Shown here: in pieces, positions 1 through 11,602 of the stretch
Position numbering within the stretch: the first letter of the stretch is position 1
How the letters are laid out: the number at the start of each line of letters is the position of its first letter
IMG/VR virus record: IMGVR_UViG_2778261227_000016
Location: 1 to 11,602 of that record
Strand: one strand, 5' to 3'
DNA: 11,602 nt
From: a virus
Taxonomy: Duplodnaviria; Heunggongvirae; Uroviricota; Caudoviricetes
Program-made: the position numbers and the translations under genes
The notes under the pieces: generated by a model
Seen by the model: the letters and a program-made list of their open reading frames with translations, nothing else
What the model was told of the DNA's origin: nothing
The model's database searches: none

Positions 1-516
1 ATGAAATTTAAAAAATGTCTTCTGCCTGTGGCAATGTTAGCGTCATTCACTCTGGCAGGATGCCAGTCAAATGCTGACGATCATGCTGCCGATGTTTATC
101 AAACCGATCAACTGAATACCAAACAAGAAACTAAAACCGTTAATATTATTTCCATTCTTCCCGCAAAAGTTGCCGTAGACAACTCCCAAAATAAACGGAA
201 CGCACAAGCCTTCGGCGCGCTTATTGGCGCAGTCGCTGGCGGTGTTATCGGCCACAACGTCGGGTCTGGCAGCAATTCCGGAACGACGGCAGGTGCAGTT
301 GGCGGCGGAGCTGTAGGCGCGGCAGCGGGTTCTATGGTGAATGATAAAACCTTAGTGGAAGGTGTTTCTTTAACCTATAAGGAAGGCACCAAAGTGTATA
401 CCTCTACCCAGGTGGGTAAAGAGTGCCAGTTTACGACAGGTTTAGCCGTTGTTATTACCACGACGTATAACGAAACGCGTATTCAGCCAAATACTAAATG
501 TCCTGAAAAGAGCTAA
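1..516 (+). CDS. yfgH: Host lipoprotein with glycine-zipper region (YfgH-like)
   Basis: ATG at 1; lipoprotein signal with lipobox LAGC (MKFKKCLLPVAMLASFTLAGC); Gly/Ala-rich glycine-zipper stretch GALIGAVAGGVIGHNVG...GAVGGGAVGAAAG; 171 aa matches the size I recall for E. coli YfgH, and the adjacent same-strand 179-aa gene matches YfgI. Symbol is from recollection, not a search. Confidence 0.55.
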   Translation: MKFKKCLLPVAMLASFTLAGCQSNADDHAADVYQTDQLNTKQETKTVNIISILPAKVAVDNSQNKRNAQAFGALIGAVAGGVIGHNVGSGSNSGTTAGAVGGGAVGAAAGSMVNDKTLVEGVSLTYKEGTKVYTSTQVGKECQFTTGLAVVITTTYNETRIQPNTKCPEKS

Positions 517-531
517 TAATCAGGAGGAGTC

Positions 532-1071
532 ATGAAGAAAGTTTTTCTTTGCGCCATCTTGGCCTCCTTAAGCTATCCGGCTATCGCCTCATCATTGCAG
601 GATCAACTCTCTGCTGTAGCAGAAGCTGAACAGCAAGGTAAAAATGAAGAGCAAAGGCAGCATGACGAATGGGTCGCGGAGCGCAACAGGGAAATCCAGC
701 AAGAGAAGCAACGTCGCGCAAATGCCCAGGCCGCCGCTAACAAAAGAGCGGCAACGGCAGCGGCAAATAAGAAAGCTCGTCAGGATAAACTGGACGCCGA
801 AGCCTCTGCGGACAAAAAACGCGATCAAAGTTATGAAGATGAGCTACGCAGCTTAGAGATTCAGAAACAAAAACTGGCGCTGGCAAAAGAAGAAGCCCGC
901 GTTAAGCGAGAAAACGAATTTATCGATCAGGAACTGAAGCACAAAGCTGCGCAAACCGATGTGGTGCAATCTGAAGCTGACGCCAACAGAAATATGACTG
1001 AAGGCGGTCGCGATCTGATGAAAAGCGTGGGCAAAGCAGAAGAGAACAAATCGGACAGCTGGTTTAATTAA
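532..1071 (+). CDS. yfgI: Host secreted charged/coiled-coil protein (YfgI-like)
   Basis: ATG at 532 preceded by AGGAGG (521-526); N-terminal signal peptide MKKVFLCAILASLSYPAIA; K/E/Q/A-rich low-complexity body; 179 aa, 15 bp downstream of the yfgH-like gene on the same strand, as in the E. coli yfgH-yfgI pair (recollection). Confidence 0.5.
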   Translation: MKKVFLCAILASLSYPAIASSLQDQLSAVAEAEQQGKNEEQRQHDEWVAERNREIQQEKQRRANAQAAANKRAATAAANKKARQDKLDAEASADKKRDQSYEDELRSLEIQKQKLALAKEEARVKRENEFIDQELKHKAAQTDVVQSEADANRNMTEGGRDLMKSVGKAEENKSDSWFN

Positions 1072-1110
1072 TCGATGTTAGTAACTTCAAGCCTATGATT
1101 CTTGAAGATA

Positions 1111-1145
1111 AAAAACCCTCTGTAGTAACAGAGGGTTTTGTTCAT
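1111..1145 (+). terminator. Rho-independent terminator after the yfgI-like gene
   Basis: Perfect 7-bp stem CCCTCTG (1116-1122) / CAGAGGG (1129-1135), loop TAGTAA, followed by TTTTGTTCATTC; an A-run on the 5-prime side makes it potentially bidirectional. Confidence 0.7.
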
Positions 1146-3192: not shown

Positions 3193-3209
3193 ATTACCCG
3201 AAAGGTGAT
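3193..3209. promoter_or_regulatory. Dyad motif copy a: ATTACC-cgaaa-GGTGAT (candidate operator)
   Basis: In the divergent intergenic region between the holin-like gene and the acyltransferase gene, 38 nt upstream of the acyltransferase ATG; shares both half-sites with copies at 6703, 7083 and 8122. Confidence 0.4.
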
Positions 3210-4328: not shown

Positions 4329-6599
4329 TTACGGAACTCGCGTTAGTACGTTATTATTCCAGTAACATTCACCACTCGCCAGACCGGTAGCTGAAGTAGG
4401 AAGAGTGAGTTTCATTGAGAGGTTAGTCAACTCAATCTTGTCGGTGTCATAAGACCCAAGCCGCAGTCTGTTCGAGCTTAACAATCTTGTGCTATCATTT
4501 GAAAACGAAAAAGAGGTACTATTTATCCTTACATTACCAATTGTTGTTGCAGACGCACCACTTGGAAATCCTCCATTAAAATTATCAAAAATATCATTCA
4601 GAGATCCTGATACTGAAACTCCAGAAACACCGTTCGTCACAGTTACAATTTGCTGTTGTGCATCACAAGAATCTGTTAATAAATTGCCAATAAGAGTACC
4701 TGCTGTAATTGAAATGTGGTTACCTATAATCTTGTTATCACCATGTGTTATATCAACGATATTGGTGCACGCCCCGATATGCTGGATATTGATATGGTTG
4801 CCACGTAACTCACCACTTGGTTGAGCGTTATTGGGTCCTTTAAGGTTAACATCGACACGGCATACGCCATTAAACATTATGTTGATTTTGTTGTTGTACC
4901 CTCTTCTTACTCTCAGTGGGCTGTCAATCGTGCCGTAGTTGGCAGAATTCATTGCGGTGAGCTCAACATCAATATCCGCTGAGCGATCCAGCAATACCAA
5001 CCCCTCGTCTAACTCCTTACCCGACACTGATCCCAACCCGCAGTTTAGCGCGTAGATATCTTTGAAACTACCGAACGAAATATCTGTAGCATAGCTTGGT
5101 GTCACCATTTCTCTGACGTTTCTTATCACTCGATCACAGTTCTCAGCGGAACAATTATAGTAGTGAACGTCTGTTGCAGTAGTCCATTCGCCAACACCAT
5201 TTTCACGACCAACAAATTCAAATGCTGATGAGCAACTTTCAACTTTTGCACCTTCAATTCTTATATTATCAACGCCGTATTCCCAGTTAAACGCCTTCCC
5301 GCCTGCTGAGTATTGTGATGACGAACCTCTGCGGCAGTTACGTATCACGCCACCAATCGACAAAACGTTCCTGCATTTACTACCGCTGATACCATTTTCA
5401 CCTTGCACATCAGACGTCGGATAACCAATATTCCCCCCATCTATATGTGGATTAATGAAACGTACATTTTCAACAGGATTACTATAAGTCCCCAGCACAG
5501 CAATCACTCCACCAATAGTTGATTTGGCAGTTAGCGTAATAAATGATGGCTTCAGCCATTCCATAGTCACATTACTAGGAACAACGATGTTATCAGAAAT
5601 TGGATATACCATTTCTTCAGTTATGATAACGCGAACACCAAATTTTGATGCTGCATTAACCGCCCCCTGAAGTCCATACAAAGTATCCGTATCAGATGGC
5701 GTAACACCAAAATCCTCTGGTGTTATATCGAATGCAGAGCGAACCCACTTCAGAGCACCACTACCAGCGACAACACCTCCATCATCTAAATCAGAGGTCG
5801 CCTTTGCGATAAACTCACCGCCACCCAACAAGGATCCAGAATGCCAGCCTTTCAACAAAATCCTCTGGCCTTCAAACTCCGGAAAAATAGAACGCAACTC
5901 ATTGAAACTATTACATTGCCCAATGCGCTTGAAACCATCAGGCTTTGCTAACTCTATAAGAACGTCTGAGGCTGACCCAGAAGGTGGTGTTATAACAATA
6001 ACGTTACCACTGTTATCAAAAGCTGGCATTTTATTGCGTCTGCCATCAACGTCAGGAAGTTGGTTTATTGGCTCAGGTACGCGAAGAGTTCTGCTAAAAT
6101 TTCCTGATGCGAGGCTATCCACATAATTTTTTGTTGCAGCATCCTGCGGTCTTACTGGATCACGTAAATTTCTGATGTAATTATTCATCGCATCATAATA
6201 GTTTGCAGCAAACGATGGCTTACGAAGCGCCAGTCTGAACCAATTACGAGTTTGCTGAATCAGCATAGTTAGTTTATCAAATGCATCCTCATGCACCTCA
6301 GCAAAAAACTTACCCTGGTTACGCAGATCTGTCTCCTGCGTAACCAGGAGCTCTCGAGAGATAGATATCTGATGACCGTTTGCCAATGCCTTCGACAAAA
6401 TTACATTGCCACCATTATATCCTCCAGCCCCGGTAACAGAGTAATCAGTATCCAGTTTCAACACCGTGATGTTTTCATTGAGGTCAGCAATCTGAACGGT
6501 CAAGTCTGACTTTTTGAAAATTCTGAATGTATACGGAAATGATGTCGTTACGCCGTTACCAGTGTATTCGTTGTGATCAACTTCGGTTGAGACCGTCAT
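4329..6599 (-). CDS. Tailspike / tail fiber protein with beta-helix-type receptor-binding (depolymerase-like) body
   Basis: 756 aa; ATG at 6599 with GGAGA about 8 nt upstream; N-terminus MTVSTEVDHNEYTGNGVTTSFPYTFRIFKKSDLTVQ... resembles the conserved particle-attachment N-domain of podophage tailspikes (recollection); central and C-terminal region rich in Gly/Asn/Ser/Thr/Val repeats typical of right-handed beta-helix folds; the 3-prime third is visibly more AT-rich than the 5-prime part. Confidence 0.8.
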   Translation of the reverse strand: MTVSTEVDHNEYTGNGVTTSFPYTFRIFKKSDLTVQIADLNENITVLKLDTDYSVTGAGGYNGGNVILSKALANGHQISISRELLVTQETDLRNQGKFFAEVHEDAFDKLTMLIQQTRNWFRLALRKPSFAANYYDAMNNYIRNLRDPVRPQDAATKNYVDSLASGNFSRTLRVPEPINQLPDVDGRRNKMPAFDNSGNVIVITPPSGSASDVLIELAKPDGFKRIGQCNSFNELRSIFPEFEGQRILLKGWHSGSLLGGGEFIAKATSDLDDGGVVAGSGALKWVRSAFDITPEDFGVTPSDTDTLYGLQGAVNAASKFGVRVIITEEMVYPISDNIVVPSNVTMEWLKPSFITLTAKSTIGGVIAVLGTYSNPVENVRFINPHIDGGNIGYPTSDVQGENGISGSKCRNVLSIGGVIRNCRRGSSSQYSAGGKAFNWEYGVDNIRIEGAKVESCSSAFEFVGRENGVGEWTTATDVHYYNCSAENCDRVIRNVREMVTPSYATDISFGSFKDIYALNCGLGSVSGKELDEGLVLLDRSADIDVELTAMNSANYGTIDSPLRVRRGYNNKINIMFNGVCRVDVNLKGPNNAQPSGELRGNHINIQHIGACTNIVDITHGDNKIIGNHISITAGTLIGNLLTDSCDAQQQIVTVTNGVSGVSVSGSLNDIFDNFNGGFPSGASATTIGNVRINSTSFSFSNDSTRLLSSNRLRLGSYDTDKIELTNLSMKLTLPTSATGLASGECYWNNNVLTRVP

Positions 6600-6702
6600 G
6601 TTAAATCTCCAGATAGTCGCAGCACCCGTTGCGCCGCATATCCGGTCATTCTATTACCTGAAAAACCACATATGGATAGATAACCCATAAATACGAACAG
6701 AT

Positions 6703-6719
6703 ATTACCTTTCAGGTGAT
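6703..6719. promoter_or_regulatory. Dyad motif copy b: ATTACC-tttca-GGTGAT (candidate operator)
   Basis: In the divergent region between the tailspike start (6599, minus) and the LexA-box promoter of the antirepressor locus; identical half-sites to copy a. Confidence 0.4.
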
Positions 6720-6755
6720 TCGCAAAACGTGCTGGATAGCAAGCAAATTATTTGA

Positions 6756-6775
6756 TACTGTATAAATATACAGTT
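6756..6775 (+). promoter_or_regulatory. LexA (SOS) box overlapping a promoter upstream of the antirepressor locus
   Basis: TACTGTATAAATATACAGTT matches the E. coli LexA consensus TACTGT-(AT)4-ACAGTA: CTGT 6758-6761, an 8-nt A/T-only spacer, ACAG 6770-6773. Overlaps a -35-like TTGATA (6752-6757); the first ATG with a Shine-Dalgarno (GGAGA 6783-6787) is at 6795. Confidence 0.65.
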
Positions 6776-6794
6776 ATTGCATGGAGAAGATAAG

Positions 6795-7052
6795 ATGCAG
6801 CAGTATCACTATCCACTGGAAGACGGATTTACCGAAAGGATTCACACGCCGGGAGGCGTCAGGTCACTAGTGGAGGGATCGCACTTGATGAAATTACTCC
6901 GGGATCTCGATAAGGATGGATTTAATGTCGATGGCCCACTTGCCGAACTGACTGCACTGATTAACTACGTCACCAGCTCACAGATGTCTATGCGGGATCT
7001 GCAAACACATCTCGACTATTGTGCCGAACAATTACGAAAACAAACCAGATAA
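6795..7052 (+). CDS. Small protein paralogous to the C-terminal domain of the downstream antirepressor
   Basis: ORF-track start at 6777 is TTG; I prefer ATG 6795 (MQQYHYPLEDG...) with GGAGA upstream; 85 aa. Residues HTPGGVRSLVEGSHLMKLLRDLDKDGFNVDGPLAELTALINYVTSSQMSMRDLQTHLDYC align by eye with the C-terminus of the 7365-8051 product (HSPSGVLGLTENSLLMNLLNQLQDDGHDVSGAAAELTTMFCYIVGVSKCLRDIQTHAEYI), about 40 percent identity. Confidence 0.5.
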   Translation: MQQYHYPLEDGFTERIHTPGGVRSLVEGSHLMKLLRDLDKDGFNVDGPLAELTALINYVTSSQMSMRDLQTHLDYCAEQLRKQTR

Positions 7053-7082
7053 GGTTTGCAATTACCAAATGGAGTGCTTATA

Positions 7083-7099
7083 TTTACCTTTGCGGTAAA
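7083..7099. promoter_or_regulatory. Dyad motif copy c: TTTACC-tttgc-GGTAAA (candidate operator) overlapping a promoter-like element
   Basis: Perfect palindrome arms ATTTACC / GGTAAAT; immediately downstream of -35-like TTGCAA (7055-7060) and -10-like TATATT (7079-7084), i.e. at the -10/+1 position typical of repressor operators. Confidence 0.4.
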
Positions 7100-7191
7100 T
7101 TTACATCACACTCCTCTTGTGCCATAGTAATCGGGCACTGGCAAAATCCAGTGCCGGGATTGGCGTCCCGAGTTACTACAGAGGCACATAT

Positions 7192-7211
7192 GCCGCATAA
7201 GCGGTTTTTTT
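7192..7211 (+). terminator. Weak intrinsic terminator / attenuator-like hairpin in the antirepressor leader
   Basis: Short stem GCCGC (7192-7196) / GCGG(T) (7201-7205), loop ATAA, followed by a run of seven T (7205-7211); lies in a roughly 310-nt untranslated leader that also holds an 8-bp-stem hairpin (7134-7155) and a GAAA-tetraloop hairpin (about 7251-7266). Confidence 0.3.
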
Positions 7212-7364
7212 ATGTGTAAAGCGCACCTATTCTATGGTGGGCTGTGTGGGGGCACCGAAAGGTGCGCCGGGTCCTTTGTAGCCGGTTACGCCAACCCTGC
7301 ACAGTTCACCACCAACCGATTGGCGTCGGTAGTGGTGATTAACCTAACTACAAAGGTGATCGCT

Positions 7365-8051
7365 ATGACTGCTAACGTAACCCCATCTGTTTTTCATTTT
7401 GAATCAGAAGCAACCATTCGAGCCATTGTTATTGATGGAAATCCTTGGTTTGTTGCCAAAGACGTTATTAAAGCTCTTCAACTGACAAACCCCACTATGT
7501 CAATAAAATCTCTTGATGATGATGAAAGGGCTAAATTTAACTTAGGCCGTCAAGGCGAAACCAATATTATCAACGAGTCAGGCCTCTACACACTGATCCT
7601 CCGCTGCCGCGATGCGGTGACACCAGGCACTACCCCCTACCGCTTTCGTAAATGGGTTACAGGTGAGGTTCTTCCTCAGATCCGCCGCACCGGAAGTTAC
7701 ATTAAAAACTCGCTCCCGCAGGAAGAACGCATAAAGATGGTTGCCGACCAGGTAGCCAGCGCCACAGCATCAGCAGTGATGCAGGCAATGAAGGTAGAGA
7801 ACAAAACCTACAGCGCCCCACTGAAGCCCGGCTACCGCAGCCTGATTCATTCGCCGTCTGGTGTTCTCGGCCTGACGGAGAACTCACTGCTGATGAATCT
7901 GCTGAACCAGTTACAGGACGACGGGCACGACGTATCGGGCGCGGCGGCGGAGCTGACCACCATGTTCTGCTACATCGTCGGTGTGAGCAAATGCCTGCGT
8001 GATATCCAGACACACGCGGAGTACATCAACGACAAAGCAGGGTTCTTCTGA
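7365..8051 (+). CDS. Phage antirepressor with N-terminal Bro-N/AntA domain
   Basis: Start placed at ATG 7365 (MTANVTPSVF...) with AAGGTG upstream; the Cys/Gly-rich upstream extension in the ORF track (from 7212, directly after a T-run) is rejected. Bro-N signature IRAIVIDGNPWFVAKDVIKAL...ESGLYTLILRCRDAVTPGTTPYRFRKWVTGEVLPQI; 228 aa. Confidence 0.8.
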   Translation: MTANVTPSVFHFESEATIRAIVIDGNPWFVAKDVIKALQLTNPTMSIKSLDDDERAKFNLGRQGETNIINESGLYTLILRCRDAVTPGTTPYRFRKWVTGEVLPQIRRTGSYIKNSLPQEERIKMVADQVASATASAVMQAMKVENKTYSAPLKPGYRSLIHSPSGVLGLTENSLLMNLLNQLQDDGHDVSGAAAELTTMFCYIVGVSKCLRDIQTHAEYINDKAGFF

Positions 8052-8121
8052 CGGGCGGCGGCACAGGGATGTGCCTTTAAATAATTCTGTACAGATTGCA
8101 GACTGGGGGTGAATAGCGTAC

Positions 8122-8138
8122 TATTACCTTAAAGGTAA
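8122..8138. promoter_or_regulatory. Dyad motif copy d: ATTACC-ttaaa-GGTAAA (candidate operator) upstream of the two-gene module
   Basis: About 45 nt upstream of the 8181 ATG; overlaps a weak promoter-like element (-35-like TTGCAG 8096-8101, -10-like TACTAT 8119-8124). Confidence 0.4.
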
Positions 8139-8180: not shown

Positions 8181-8507
8181 ATGACAAAACTTGGATTCGT
8201 GATGAGAGGTCCGGTAAGAAGCGGAACTCATGCAAAGCGTAGCAAGAGTCGTATTTTTACTGGTAAGGTTGTAGCACGTAAATCAGCTATTGGCTCGTTC
8301 AATAGTGAAAATGCGGCATTGCGCCATATTTTTATCAGCACAAAGCCAAGAGCATCCGCTGATGTGCATACAATGACTATTCCTATCACAAAGAATATAA
8401 AGCGGATAAAAAAGCTCTCATCTGCAGAATCAAAAGAGATATCTTTCCGCCAGCTTAACTCATTAGAAACGCATATGAAGGAAGAGGAATTCGATGTTTT
8501 TGAGTGA
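8181..8507 (+). CDS. Small basic protein with acidic C-terminal tail; putative antitoxin/partner of the downstream gene
   Basis: 108 aa; ATG 8181 with GGAG (8170-8173); Lys/Arg-rich N-terminal half (KRSKSRIFTGKVVARKS), acidic C-terminus HMKEEEFDVFE; its stop overlaps the next ORF start by 14 nt (translational coupling); AT-rich. Confidence 0.45.
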   Translation: MTKLGFVMRGPVRSGTHAKRSKSRIFTGKVVARKSAIGSFNSENAALRHIFISTKPRASADVHTMTIPITKNIKRIKKLSSAESKEISFRQLNSLETHMKEEEFDVFE

Positions 8508-9589: not shown

Positions 9590-9763
9590 TTACCCATTAA
9601 AAATCAGAGGCCTCCCCTCAATAAGGCTTGCAACAAGAACTACTCCCTGCACAACAAAGATGAACCAGCAAATAGCTTGAGTCTGAGGGTTAAGAAAATA
9701 TTTGTAGCGGTCAATAAATAACAATCCACCAGAAATTATCACACTCAAAATAATTAAAAACAC
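9590..9763 (-). CDS. Unlisted small hydrophobic ORF (57 aa, GTG start) between the large virion gene and the 98-aa membrane gene
   Basis: Hand translation of the minus strand: (GTG)FLIILSVIISGGLLFIDRYKYFLNPQTQAICWFIFVVQGVVLVASLIEGRPLIFNG, stop TAA at 9592-9590; AAGGAAG precedes the GTG and overlaps the large gene's stop; two predicted TM helices; fills a 195-bp gap and ends 13 nt before the next gene's ATG. Absent from the ORF track, presumably below its length cutoff. Confidence 0.35.
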   Translation of the reverse strand: MFLIILSVIISGGLLFIDRYKYFLNPQTQAICWFIFVVQGVVLVASLIEGRPLIFNG

Positions 9764-9772
9764 AACACTTCC

Positions 9773-11602
9773 TTATTGCGGAGTGACATCCTGAGGTCGC
9801 CACCAGTATGTCTGGTTAAACTCTTTCTTCGAACGTTGCTCCATTTTACGCAAATATCCTGGTGAAAAATACTCCTGCATCTGGTTAAAGATCATGTGAT
9901 CGAGAGCCGCCTTCAAGTACCAGAGATTCGCACCAGGCATCAAACCTTTCCCCAGCTTCACCAGATCACCACCAGTCTGCTCACTCTTCCCTTCCACAGC
10001 ATTTAACGGTATGCCCTGAGCAATCTTCACTACGTCATCAACCAGACCAGCTACCGGGCCAAGCATCGACGCCAGCGCGCCGCTTCCGTACCTAGTGTGA
10101 TCTGACAATAAAAAGTCACCATAAAGGCCAAGACCACCACCTTTCAGTAGAGCACCAAGCCAGAATTTTGCGGCATCTTCTCCTGTCATCTCTCGAGGAT
10201 TACGACCAGACGCAAGGTCGTTAAGTTGTTGCGACAAAGCGCCAAGAATGGTCGTACTGGCAATAAACGTCGCAATATATGCCGCACGCCCACCAGCAGA
10301 CGGCATACCCATAGCGCGTGACCAGTGACGCATAACAACCGAGATAGGGAACGATTTAAACAGGAAAACACTTCTCGTTAATTCACCTTTCCATGTTCCA
10401 CGCTGAAGACCAGACCCTACGAACATCTGTTCACGTGCGCCCGGTGTAATAACAGCCATATCAACTTCTTCAGTTACGGCACCGAGCAGTTTACGCATTG
10501 CCTCAAATTTCACACGTTCAGGCTCACCAAGATGTTTAACTGCTGAATCAGGGATACGCATAATGCTTTCCGGTGTCAGCATCGTATTATTACCGTTCCC
10601 CCAGTCCTCCTGTTGCGCCAGCTTCCATACGCTCCAGTCTGTGTCAGTAATCCCTTTGCTTTTCAGGATACGAAAATCAGAGTCATCGAGGCTACGAAGG
10701 TCTGGTGTCCGTGACACTACTTCTCCTAGGCTTCCCATCATAGTTACGCCATAGGCGCGCTTGTGCGCATCTGACCATGCTGTAAGCCCACTGGCACGCA
10801 TTACCGCCGTTGCCGCCCAACGAGACACAGACGGCCCCATATTATCCATCGCCCAGCGGTTAACGCTGCCAAGTAGAGATTCCATCGCCAGACCAGCTCG
10901 GCGCGCCCGCGCAAGCTCAGTACGGTTCGTTGGGTCCATAGCTTCAAGCTGGTTGCGGAATAACTGGTTCATTGGAAGGTTGGTAACCTTCGCAGACAGA
11001 TACATGGTTCCAAGATCAGAGAACGATGACAGCAACGCGGATCCGAGTCTGCTGGCAACCAGCCAGTTGCGGATATTGTCAGACCATCGCGCGATGTGCG
11101 GATTCGCTACAGGCTGTGTCTTTCCGGAAATAAAGTTGTACAGGTTCTCTGTTTTGTTCGCCAGCCGCTCGACGCTACCGGTTTTACTCGGGTTAGCTGT
11201 TGCCGTTTCAGCCTTCACCTGATCAAGAAGGGAACGGAAAACATGATCGGGGTTTGGGCCATATGTTTCCACCAGAGCAATATCTTTACTGATCCCTTCC
11301 AAGTGACCGACCATGATTTCCCATAGAGAGCGATCGCCATAAAGTTGCTGATATTGCAGATAGGAATCTGCATCTTTGAAATGTATCTGTCGTGATGCAT
11401 TACCACGGTTAGAACGTGCGCCGGAAATTCGCATTCCGGTATCAGTAAGCTTATTCAGCCCACCAGTAGCGATCGTGTTATAAGCCTCTCCAAGAAATGC
11501 AGACAACTCAGCATCGTTCATCAGTTGTGAACCGCCCCGGGAATCCTGGAGACTAAACTTCCTGAGAAAGAGGTAAACAGGATGACTAAAAATACTCGTT
11601 TT
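9773..11602 (-). CDS. Large phage virion/ejection-type structural protein, partial (N-terminus beyond window end)
   Basis: The ORF-track entry starts at ATG 11521, but the frame stays open upstream to 11602 (hand translation ...KTSIFSHPVYLFLRKFSLQDSRGGSQL-MNDAELSAF...), so the gene probably starts outside the window; at least 609 codons; no enzymatic motif recognised; Gly-rich C-terminal segment (LKGGGLGLYGDFLLSDHTRYGSGALASMLGPVAGLVDD); same strand as and directly upstream of two small membrane-protein genes. Confidence 0.6.
   Translation of the reverse strand, partial: KTSIFSHPVYLFLRKFSLQDSRGGSQLMNDAELSAFLGEAYNTIATGGLNKLTDTGMRISGARSNRGNASRQIHFKDADSYLQYQQLYGDRSLWEIMVGHLEGISKDIALVETYGPNPDHVFRSLLDQVKAETATANPSKTGSVERLANKTENLYNFISGKTQPVANPHIARWSDNIRNWLVASRLGSALLSSFSDLGTMYLSAKVTNLPMNQLFRNQLEAMDPTNRTELARARRAGLAMESLLGSVNRWAMDNMGPSVSRWAATAVMRASGLTAWSDAHKRAYGVTMMGSLGEVVSRTPDLRSLDDSDFRILKSKGITDTDWSVWKLAQQEDWGNGNNTMLTPESIMRIPDSAVKHLGEPERVKFEAMRKLLGAVTEEVDMAVITPGAREQMFVGSGLQRGTWKGELTRSVFLFKSFPISVVMRHWSRAMGMPSAGGRAAYIATFIASTTILGALSQQLNDLASGRNPREMTGEDAAKFWLGALLKGGGLGLYGDFLLSDHTRYGSGALASMLGPVAGLVDDVVKIAQGIPLNAVEGKSEQTGGDLVKLGKGLMPGANLWYLKAALDHMIFNQMQEYFSPGYLRKMEQRSKKEFNQTYWWRPQDVTPQ

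Follow-up and report, generated by a model that had tools for sequence, protein, structure and literature searches.

The window, an 11,602-nt stretch of DNA, spans a junction between an Escherichia coli chromosome and a prophage. The chromosomal part (positions 1 to ~1163) carries yfgH and yfgI, genes shared by 5,422 of 5,426 genomes, and a 17-nt core, attgagtgggaatgatt, follows on the minus strand at 1180-1164. This sequence has been reported as the attP/attB core of phages phiV10, epsilon15 and vB_EcoP_ZX5, located at the 3' end of guaA (PMC9782041). The prophage is a podovirus of the Uetakevirus (phiV10/epsilon15) type integrated at guaA, and the phages that match it most closely are phiV10, TL-2011b, ZX5 and Enterobacter phage Tyrion.

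The antirepressor gene ant and the RNA module in front of it are flanked by a tail-fibre gene (4329-6599) and a virion structural gene (9773-11521), both on the minus strand. The Ant protein matches the Pfam Bro-N domain (2.9e-20) and PHROG 130, "anti-repressor Ant" (1.2e-55); for the flanking small proteins, NCBIfam gave no matches. The ATG of ant is preceded by a good Shine-Dalgarno sequence, and the coding sequences of relatives are annotated from the same ATG. Across window positions 6600-8100, vB_EcoP_ZX5 shows ~95% DNA identity over 85% of the region. Overexpression of the annotated antirepressor of this phage, ORF4, has been reported to decrease lysogeny approximately 1000-fold (PMC9782041). 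Just upstream of the leader lies a small paralog gene under SOS control, with a LexA box at 6758-6773, and no terminator was found before position 7135. DNA resembling the leader is present in 941 of the 5,426 complete E. coli genomes, but in the sampled E. coli RefSeq matches no annotation is present under it. ARAGORN detected no tRNA or tmRNA in the leader. The features of the leader and of the regulated gene are listed in Table 1.

Table 1. Features of the ant leader and of ant in the window; RNA motifs are given in RNA letters.
Feature	Position	Strand	Remarks
Upstream promoter-like site, TTGCAA-17-TATATT	7056-7084	+	Predicted start inside the dyad; position analogous to P1 P2c4; putative function
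Operator-like dyad, TTACCTTTGCGGTAA	7084-7098		Perfect TTACC-N5-GGTAA; abuts the -35 of the IsrK promoter
IsrK/C4 promoter	7100-7128	+	-35 TTTACA, 17-bp spacer, extended -10 TGcCATAGT; predicted start ~7135
IsrK small RNA (c4-a1b1 element)	7135-7211	+	isrK, RF01394
IsrK stem-loop 1	7135-7154	+	Position from Rfam; arms GGCACTGG/CCAGTGCC, hairpin located at 7134-7155
IsrK stem-loop 2	7155-7170	+	Loop bears a1
a1, UUGGCGU	7160-7166	+	Loop of IsrK hairpin 2
b1, CUACAGAGG	7176-7184	+	Linker just 3' of IsrK hairpin 2
IsrK intrinsic terminator, GCCGC-AUAA-GCGGU + U7	7192-7211	+	Motif location and terminator scan
C4 antisense RNA	7230-7316	+	RF01695; 17-bp outer stem enclosing two hairpins
C4 outer stem, 17 bp	7235-7251 with 7295-7311	+	Rfam consensus/fold
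C4 inner hairpin 1, GCACC-GAAA-GGUGC	7252-7265	+	Motif location
C4 inner hairpin 2	7266-7286	+	Loop bears b'
b', CCUUUGUAG	7273-7281	+	C4 loop 2
a', ACGCCAA	7288-7294	+	C4 junction
a2, UUGGCGU	7320-7326	+	Complement of a', 7 nt; just 3' of C4
b2, CUACAAAGG	7348-7356	+	Exact complement of b', 9 nt; overlaps the ant Shine-Dalgarno sequence; ends 8 nt before the ATG
ant Shine-Dalgarno sequence, AAGGUGA	7353-7359	+	Overlapped by b2
ant, antirepressor, 228 aa	7365-8051	+	Bro-N domain and C-terminal antirepressor domain; the regulated gene

The promoter-like element and the dyad copy that had been noticed in the leader beforehand are both present, as two promoter-like sites and a perfect dyad. The hexamers of the upstream site recur at equal positions in those of the related loci in which the small upstream gene is present. 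Sites of the form TTACC-N5-GGTAA, allowing at most one mismatch, number five in the window against 0.29 expected, and the dyad is found at -51 from the IsrK +1 in 24 of 87 distinct upstream regions; this placement is seen in the Uetakevirus-like subgroup. There, the half-sites are conserved while the 5-nt spacer varies, a pattern expected of an operator. Furthermore, a -10-like hexamer 7-8 nt 5' of the IsrK +1, with a -35 element another 17 nt upstream, recurs in otherwise unrelated upstream sequences, in support of a transcription start at ~7135.

A covariance-model scan, one of the checks proposed for the leader, yielded two Rfam matches above the gathering score (GA) in the whole window, isrK (RF01394; 74.2 bits, GA 50) and C4 (RF01695; 79.5 bits, GA 45, model positions 1-87 of 87, E 1.1e-14), both full length, on the plus strand and with E ~1e-14. 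A permissive scan of positions 6950-7450 on both strands (E<=1) added only c4-a1b1 (RF03163), which matches 7122-7174 with 44.3 bits (2.4 below its GA of 46.7; E 4.9e-10) and overlaps the 5' half of isrK; neither sar nor any other antisense family appeared. The three hairpins singled out in the original prediction, namely an 8-bp-stem hairpin, a short hairpin followed by TTTTTTT that was also detected by the terminator scan, and a hairpin with a GAAA tetraloop, are indeed present in the sequence. However, they are not independent elements but parts of two catalogued RNAs, corresponding, respectively, to stem 1 of IsrK, the IsrK terminator and the first inner hairpin of C4. The 17-bp outer stem of C4, its second hairpin and the complementarities between the a and b sites had been missed.

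When folded in isolation, the segment 7135-7211 adopts three hairpins in the minimum free energy (MFE) structure, whereas the MFE fold of 7230-7316 is the Rfam consensus of C4 (-45.2 kcal/mol), with a' and b' unpaired. The fold of the RNA 7135-7380 has z = -4.5 relative to dinucleotide shuffles; together with the two full-length Rfam matches and the strong covariation described below, this bears out the view of the leader as structured beyond chance. The pairing between b1 and b' includes one G-U pair. Evaluated from the window sequence alone, the duplexes between the a and b sites have energies of -10 to -14 kcal/mol, with 13 to 68 of 1000 shuffles being equally good, which is too weak on its own; the case therefore rests on comparative data. 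Further C4 targets were sought, and candidates at ~980-1125 on the minus strand were rejected as chance matches given their wrong order and spacing of 130 nt, the b-like word there simply belonging to an arm of the hairpin that terminates transcription downstream of yfgI.

For the comparative analysis, IMG/VR was scanned with an exact pattern for the IsrK stem-1 motif, which yielded 120 loci. Rfam was run on 20 loci, of which 16 came from the scan and the others were phiV10, Tyrion, APSE-7 and Gifsy-1; in 19 of the 20, C4 lies 20-65 nt 3' of isrK, and in the remaining one the contig ends soon after isrK. A C4 covariance model was built from 21 sequences. In this seed alignment, 97.3% of the cells are paired, compared with 34-48% in slid controls, and double (compensatory) changes occur in 16 of the 27 pairs. 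Likewise, stems 1 and 2 of IsrK are paired at 95.5% across 89 sequences, against 22-45% in slid controls, so that the folding and covariation check suggested for the leader came out far above the control level for both RNAs. The model detected 102 copies of C4 in the loci in addition to that of the window, and 100 of these 103 have the IsrK pattern at most 200 nt upstream on the same strand. The arrangement downstream is also conserved among 92 distinct loci. The a2 site lies 0-7 nt beyond the 3' end of C4 in nearly all of them, with a single outlier at +85, and the first ATG is found 6-11 nt downstream of b2 in 83. The terminator hairpin of IsrK with its T-run is kept in 88 of the 92 loci, and a conserved flanking helix encloses it without disrupting the terminator stem.

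The 92 loci comprise 18 types of a', 52 b' loops and 68 combinations of the two, and this diversity permits the pairing partners to be compared across loci. With a match defined as a run of at least 7 nt and non-cognate pairs of different type as controls, a' matches a1 in 98% of the cognate pairs versus 0.5% of the non-cognate ones, and a2 in 98% versus 0.4%; for b', the respective values are 93% versus 5.5% with b1 and 98% versus 16.9% with b2. Thus, the three a sites change together, and so do the three b sites. The matches of b' are longer with b2 than with b1 (9.4 versus 8.2 nt on average), so the real target generally pairs better than the decoy. Two close relatives of the prophage exemplify the concerted changes. 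In Tyrion, all three a sites are switched (UUGGCGU to UUGGUCU and ACGCCAA to AGACCAA) with the b type of the window, and in phiV10 all three b sites are switched (CUACAAAGG to CUAAAAGG; CUAAAAGG/CCUUUUAG) with the a type of the window; these switches parallel P1/P7 heteroimmunity in their logic. In approximately 40 of 88 other loci, the ORF that comes first after b2 encodes an Icd-like protein of 62-65 aa, and in the rest a Bro-N, Rha or SfsB-like regulator; in the window, it is the 228-aa Bro-N Ant.

The order and strand of the RNA elements in the window are the same as in the immI region of P1/P7. The P1 GenBank record lists the C1 operator Oc4, P2c4, P1c4, a1, b1, c4 (77 nt), a2 and b2, in this order, with four nt between c4 and a2 and eleven nt between b2 and icd. 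The P1 C4 has the same three-helix fold as that of the window, loop 2 bearing b' and the junction bearing a', and in both cases a2 is located a few nt past C4 and b2 at the ribosome-binding site of the first gene. The two tandem promoters of P1 with their adjacent operator correspond to two promoter-like sites next to an operator-like dyad in the window, and in both regions the antirepressor is the final regulated product. There are, nevertheless, several differences. P1 has icd, whereas in the window icd is missing and b2 falls on the Shine-Dalgarno sequence of ant itself, leaving no icd-dependent coupling step; the antirepressor is a Bro-N protein as opposed to Ant1/2; the putative operator is a TTACC-N5-GGTAA dyad rather than a C1 site; and the phage is a podovirus prophage integrated at guaA. 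In the window, the a1b1 element amounts to a complete IsrK that ends in a strong terminator (74 bits with isrK), as opposed to 35 bits in P1. In Rfam, P1 scores 68.8 bits with C4, 51 bits with c4-a1b1 and 35 bits with isrK, the last being sub-threshold, although full length; IsrK and the a1b1 element of P1 are therefore homologous.

In P1, C4 is released from the leader transcript by cutting and base-pairs, either in trans or in cis, with a pair of short sites where ribosomes bind the ant mRNA; the 5' end of P1 C4 is processed by RNase P. By analogy with the mature ends in P1, the mature C4 of the prophage would extend over ~7236-7313 and be excised from the leader transcript. As quoted by Weinberg et al., Citron and Schuster proposed that a1/b1 compete with a2/b2.

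The same pair of RNAs precedes a Bro-N gene in the APSE phages of Hamiltonella, where isrK and C4 have been annotated in tandem (Rouil et al., 2020, PMC7313666). There, as in the window, both RNAs directly precede the Bro-N gene without icd, and a'/b' are annotated in the GenBank record. In contrast to the window, the APSE locus belongs to another host and another phage genus (Sendosyvirus), has only ~70% leader identity and lacks a LexA-controlled paralog upstream.

The isrK-orf45-anrP-isrJ locus of the Salmonella prophage Gifsy-1 is homologous to the module of the window. As in the window, a homologous IsrK (79 bits in Rfam), a terminator, read-through and a C4 precede the antirepressor gene, and the a type is that of the window (UUGGCGU/ACGCCAA); in phage Gifsy-1 (L004), isrK occupies 1495-1571, C4 1597-1680 and anrP starts at 1735. 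In contrast to the window module with its tail-fibre and virion neighbours, the Gifsy-1 locus belongs to a lambdoid prophage and has the Q antiterminator as its neighbour. The published start of orf45 (+107) is a conserved AUG within the 5' end of C4, and orf45 spans C4, a2 and b2 up to an AUGA overlap with anrP; in place of this 45-codon ORF, the stop of which overlaps the anrP start, the window has a 15-codon remnant. It has been noted that orf45's nucleotide sequence is conserved and the protein is not, and that an ~80-nt RNA, STnc1160, is processed from orf45, its role being left unknown in that study (Hershko-Shalev et al., 2016, PMC4825925). From the sequence comparison, "orf45" itself appears to be C4, and orf45/STnc1160 has the features expected of a C4 RNA. 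The strings "phage P1", "bacteriophage P1", "icd", "RNase P" and "Rfam" are all absent from the text of PMC4825925, and we found no work in the searchable literature that names both STnc1160 and c4-a1b1.

Several of the Gifsy-1 experiments bear on this assignment. The pairing between a1 and a' has been tested by compensatory mutations (PMC4825925), and the compensatory pairs, G28A/C162U and G31A/C159U, map to a1 and a'. With the a' mutations C159U and C162U, the translation of anrP rises from 4 units to 926 and to 484 units, respectively (PMC4825925, Table 1), and IsrK supplied in trans increases translation ~140-fold, with the a1 mutants G28A and G31A being inactive (PMC4825925). These data on a' mutants and on IsrK in trans fit with C4 being a repressor and IsrK a competitor. 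Two further results are not predicted by a simple scheme in which C4 represses and IsrK titrates: G28A in cis increases the basal translation of anrP, from 4 to 93, and constitutive STnc1160/orf45 makes IsrK toxicity stronger rather than weaker (PMC4825925). Binding of IsrK to Hfq and trans-activation of the antirepressor have been shown for Gifsy-1 only (PMC4825925).

Taken together, these observations make it highly likely that the region 7056-7364 is an RNA switch of the P1 immI type that controls the translation of Ant in a Uetakevirus-like E. coli prophage. Very probably, ant is gated post-transcriptionally by a small RNA derived from its own leader, and the joint variation of the a and b sites, along with the experiments on P1 and Gifsy-1, suggests that C4 represses antirepressor synthesis and sets the immunity specificity. 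We propose the following scheme. Transcription would start at ~7135 from the sigma-70 promoter alongside the operator-like dyad, and the majority of the transcripts would end at the IsrK terminator, giving a 77-nt IsrK RNA, whereas read-through transcripts would cross C4 into ant. C4 would fold into its long stem with two inner hairpins, leaving two sites single-stranded, b' (loop 2) and a' (junction). The pairing of b' with b2, on the ant Shine-Dalgarno sequence, and of a' with a2 would block ribosome binding and keep Ant off in the lysogen. IsrK, which carries copies of the target sites, would be a decoy, its a1 and b1 pairing with a' and b' in competition with the real target and so relieving repression. 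The short a and b sequences would then define the specificity, i.e., the immunity type, of each phage. Against this scheme, the c4-a1b1 model scores below its gathering threshold, and both icd and an intact orf45 are absent from the window; given the latter, the translational coupling and Rho termination of P1 and Gifsy-1 may not apply here.

One alternative follows the model put forward for Gifsy-1, in which the read-through isrK-orf45-ant mRNA folds into an inactive form, IsrK in trans opens the ribosome-binding site of the small ORF (orf45), ant is reached by translational coupling, and the C4 region is mRNA as opposed to a separate repressor RNA. This model has experimental support at the homologous locus (PMC4825925). 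In agreement with it, the MFE fold of the whole leader of the window pairs a1/b1 of IsrK with a'/b' of C4, similarly to the published "structure A", and the conserved AUG of the orf45 start is present within the 5' end of C4, at 7234. However, the ORF that begins there consists of only 15 codons and terminates at UAG 7279-7281, inside loop b' and 84 nt before the ATG of ant, so that stop/start coupling is impossible. Moreover, ORF lengths from the conserved AUG vary widely among the loci, the alternative in-frame ATG at 7212 lacks a Shine-Dalgarno sequence and its frame is closed in phiV10, and the co-variation of a2/b2 with a'/b' (98% of the loci) is left unexplained. We thus regard this explanation as unlikely for the present prophage.

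The original prediction held that a cis-acting attenuator or a small RNA may gate ant. Gating by RNA is very probable and the intrinsic terminator is real, but a simple cis attenuator is disfavored. In its pure form, the attenuator reading states that the terminator at 7192-7211 and regulated read-through alone decide the expression of ant, the downstream hairpins being mere mRNA structure. The terminator-like site is indeed conserved in the leaders, as described above, partial read-through has been demonstrated in Gifsy-1 (PMC4825925), and Weinberg et al. allow that C4 might sometimes act in cis. Yet, no antiterminator pairing in competition with the terminator stem is seen in the MFE or the centroid folds, the flanking helix surrounds the terminator and does not compete with it, and the reading accounts neither for the joint variation of the three a sites and of the three b sites nor for the position of b2 on the Shine-Dalgarno sequence. 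In Gifsy-1, furthermore, transcription changed 8-fold, compared with ~140-fold for translation (PMC4825925). Attenuation as the sole mechanism is accordingly quite improbable.

The original prediction also drew a comparison with the antisense RNA sar of phage P22, and this part does not hold. The sar RNA of P22 is an opposite-strand transcript across the arc-ant junction. The two systems are alike in that RNA pairs at the translation start of an antirepressor gene, or close to it, and keeps the gene silent, but in the window the regulator gene lies upstream of its target, on one and the same strand, and pairing involves two short discontinuous sites. No minus-strand promoter-like site was detected in 6500-7600, and an antisense RNA of the sar type was rejected.

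The view that the leader holds no convincing ORF is likewise sustained: although an ORF from ATG 7212 is open and in frame with ant up to 8051, and a fused orf45-anrP has been reported for S. dysenteriae (PMC4825925), it is extremely improbable that the leader is coding, be it for a longer Ant of 279 aa extended at its N terminus or for a small leader peptide, and that the RNA structure is incidental, as the frame is open across C4 in just 58% of the loci and for only 12 nt in the closest relative, phiV10, the substitutions obey base pairing, ATG 7212 directly follows the U-run, and the coding sequences of relatives are annotated from ATG 7365. Neither the extension from ATG 7212 nor the peptide from AUG 7234 is conserved.

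The module in the window is an ordinary member of families that are already in Rfam and is not a new kind of system: the mechanism was described for P1/P7 in 1990 and was probed in Gifsy-1 in 2016 (PMC4825925). For annotation, the 310-nt leader becomes two non-coding RNA genes, isrK/c4-a1b1 and C4, and the sites targeted. With regard to phage biology, prophages of the phiV10/epsilon15 type would hold their antirepressor off by the logic of P1 immI reduced to its shortest version, in which the direct target of C4 is the Shine-Dalgarno sequence of ant. Two bodies of literature that stand apart in the papers searched, on c4/a1b1 of P1 and on IsrK/orf45/STnc1160 of Salmonella, would thereby be linked as dealing with the same module.

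More tentatively, IsrK, C4 and the target might constitute a tunable circuit of sponge, antisense RNA and target, in which the output is set by read-through of the IsrK terminator and by read-in from the SOS-controlled paralog; we consider this possible but rather doubtful. A hint of action between prophages comes from one contig (L046), on which a1 of one module fits the a' type of a second C4 on the contig and not that of its own C4, the a' type of the second C4 being deduced from a score identical to that of the C4 of another locus (L014). If the circuit exists, DNA damage would be coupled to the translation of Ant via the ratio of IsrK to C4, and free recombination of the a and b "address" sequences (18 x 52 types seen) could allow IsrK or C4 to act across prophages that share a cell. 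As a corollary, orf45/STnc1160 of Gifsy-1 would be C4, and the work on IsrK and the work on P1 c4 would describe one mechanism.

The C4 antisense RNA of this leader has a counterpart in phage Gifsy-1 (NC_010392; L004 in our set of related loci), where Rfam identifies a full-length C4 match at 1597-1680 with a score of 69 bits. Within the Gifsy-1 isrK locus, this match coincides with the published 'orf45' and with the processed sRNA STnc1160, and the AUG of orf45 is the conserved AUG of the C4 5' end. The published Gifsy-1 compensatory mutants fall in a1, the IsrK copy of the target, and in a', the complementary site of C4. No link between IsrK/orf45 and c4/a1b1 of phage P1 was found in the searchable literature.

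Additional pairings are predicted around the IsrK terminator and the a2 target. The sequence CACAUA directly 5' of the terminator hairpin (7185-7190) is complementary to UAUGUG directly after the U-run (7211-7217), and a pairing at the same position is found in 87 of the 88 loci. A helix of at least 6 bp is formed in 81% of the loci by the cognate arms vs 48% for non-cognate pairs. That this helix would enclose the IsrK terminator in read-through transcripts has moderate support, and the helix may serve in processing or insulation. Furthermore, 7327-7339 (CGGUAGUGGUGA) is an alternative partner for the outer-stem 3' arm of C4 (UUCACCACCAACCG). This candidate pairing, within region 7306-7339, can be drawn such that a2 would be presented in a hairpin loop, resembling the display of a1 in hairpin 2 of IsrK; by raw count, a2 lies between complementary arms of at least 3 bp in 82 of 92 loci.

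Several loci carry more than one copy of the system. One viral contig (L046, IMGVR_UViG_2660238469_000004) encodes two isrK-C4 modules, at 7101-7334 and 9737-9963, another (L061) likewise has two modules, and L012 has two C4 copies. In the first module of L046, the IsrK a1 (GUGAGAA) is mismatched to its own C4 a' (UUCCUAC) and matches the a' type UUCUCAC. We infer this latter type for the C4 of the second module because its match shares score and GC content with the C4 of another related locus (L014). The pattern hints at cross-talk or recombination between the modules.

The region upstream of the leader contains a small gene, the 85-aa product of which is 41% identical to the C-terminal domain of Ant over 78 aa; both proteins match phrog_450. 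No plus-strand terminator was found between this gene and the IsrK promoter, which suggests that SOS-induced transcription could proceed from it into isrK-C4-ant. Among the related upstream regions, 10 of 87 have a LexA box at about -377. The dyad TTACC-N5-GGTAA is present in five copies in the window, vs 0.29 expected, located 5' of the O-acetyltransferase gene, of the 85-aa gene, of isrK and of the gene at 8181-8507; these look like a putative operator regulon of one phage repressor. Positions 1-1180 are the junction of host chromosome and prophage, and the att core is identical to the published attP core of phiV10, epsilon15 and ZX5.

Features around the isrK-C4 module and at the host-prophage junction
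Feature	Position	Strand	Remark
yfgH	1-516		E. coli core genome
yfgI	532-1071		E. coli core genome
Bidirectional terminator hairpin	about 1110-1133		downstream of yfgI
guaA 3'-end/att core attgagtgggaatgatt	1180-1164	minus	after terminator hairpin
Dyad TTACC-N5-GGTAA	2950-2964, 3194-3208, 6704-6718, 7084-7098, 8124-8138		at most 1 mismatch
LexA box CTGTATAAATATACAG	6758-6773		near-consensus; between -35-like TTGATA and start of 85-aa gene
85-aa gene	6795-7052		directly 5' of leader; stand-alone paralog of Ant C-terminal domain

Sequence similar to the leader was detected in 941 of 5,426 complete E. coli genomes (RefSeq), with no annotation under the match in any sampled record. The gene with the b2-covered ribosome-binding site differs among the related loci (L005-L124): the first ORF after b2 encodes an Icd-like protein of 62-65 aa (NCBIfam phage_ICD_like) in about 40 of 88 loci, and a Bro-N Ant or a regulator of either Rha-family or SfsB/Ner-like type in others. 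Given this variety of genes under b2, the isrK-C4 cassette appears to behave as a portable translational gate.
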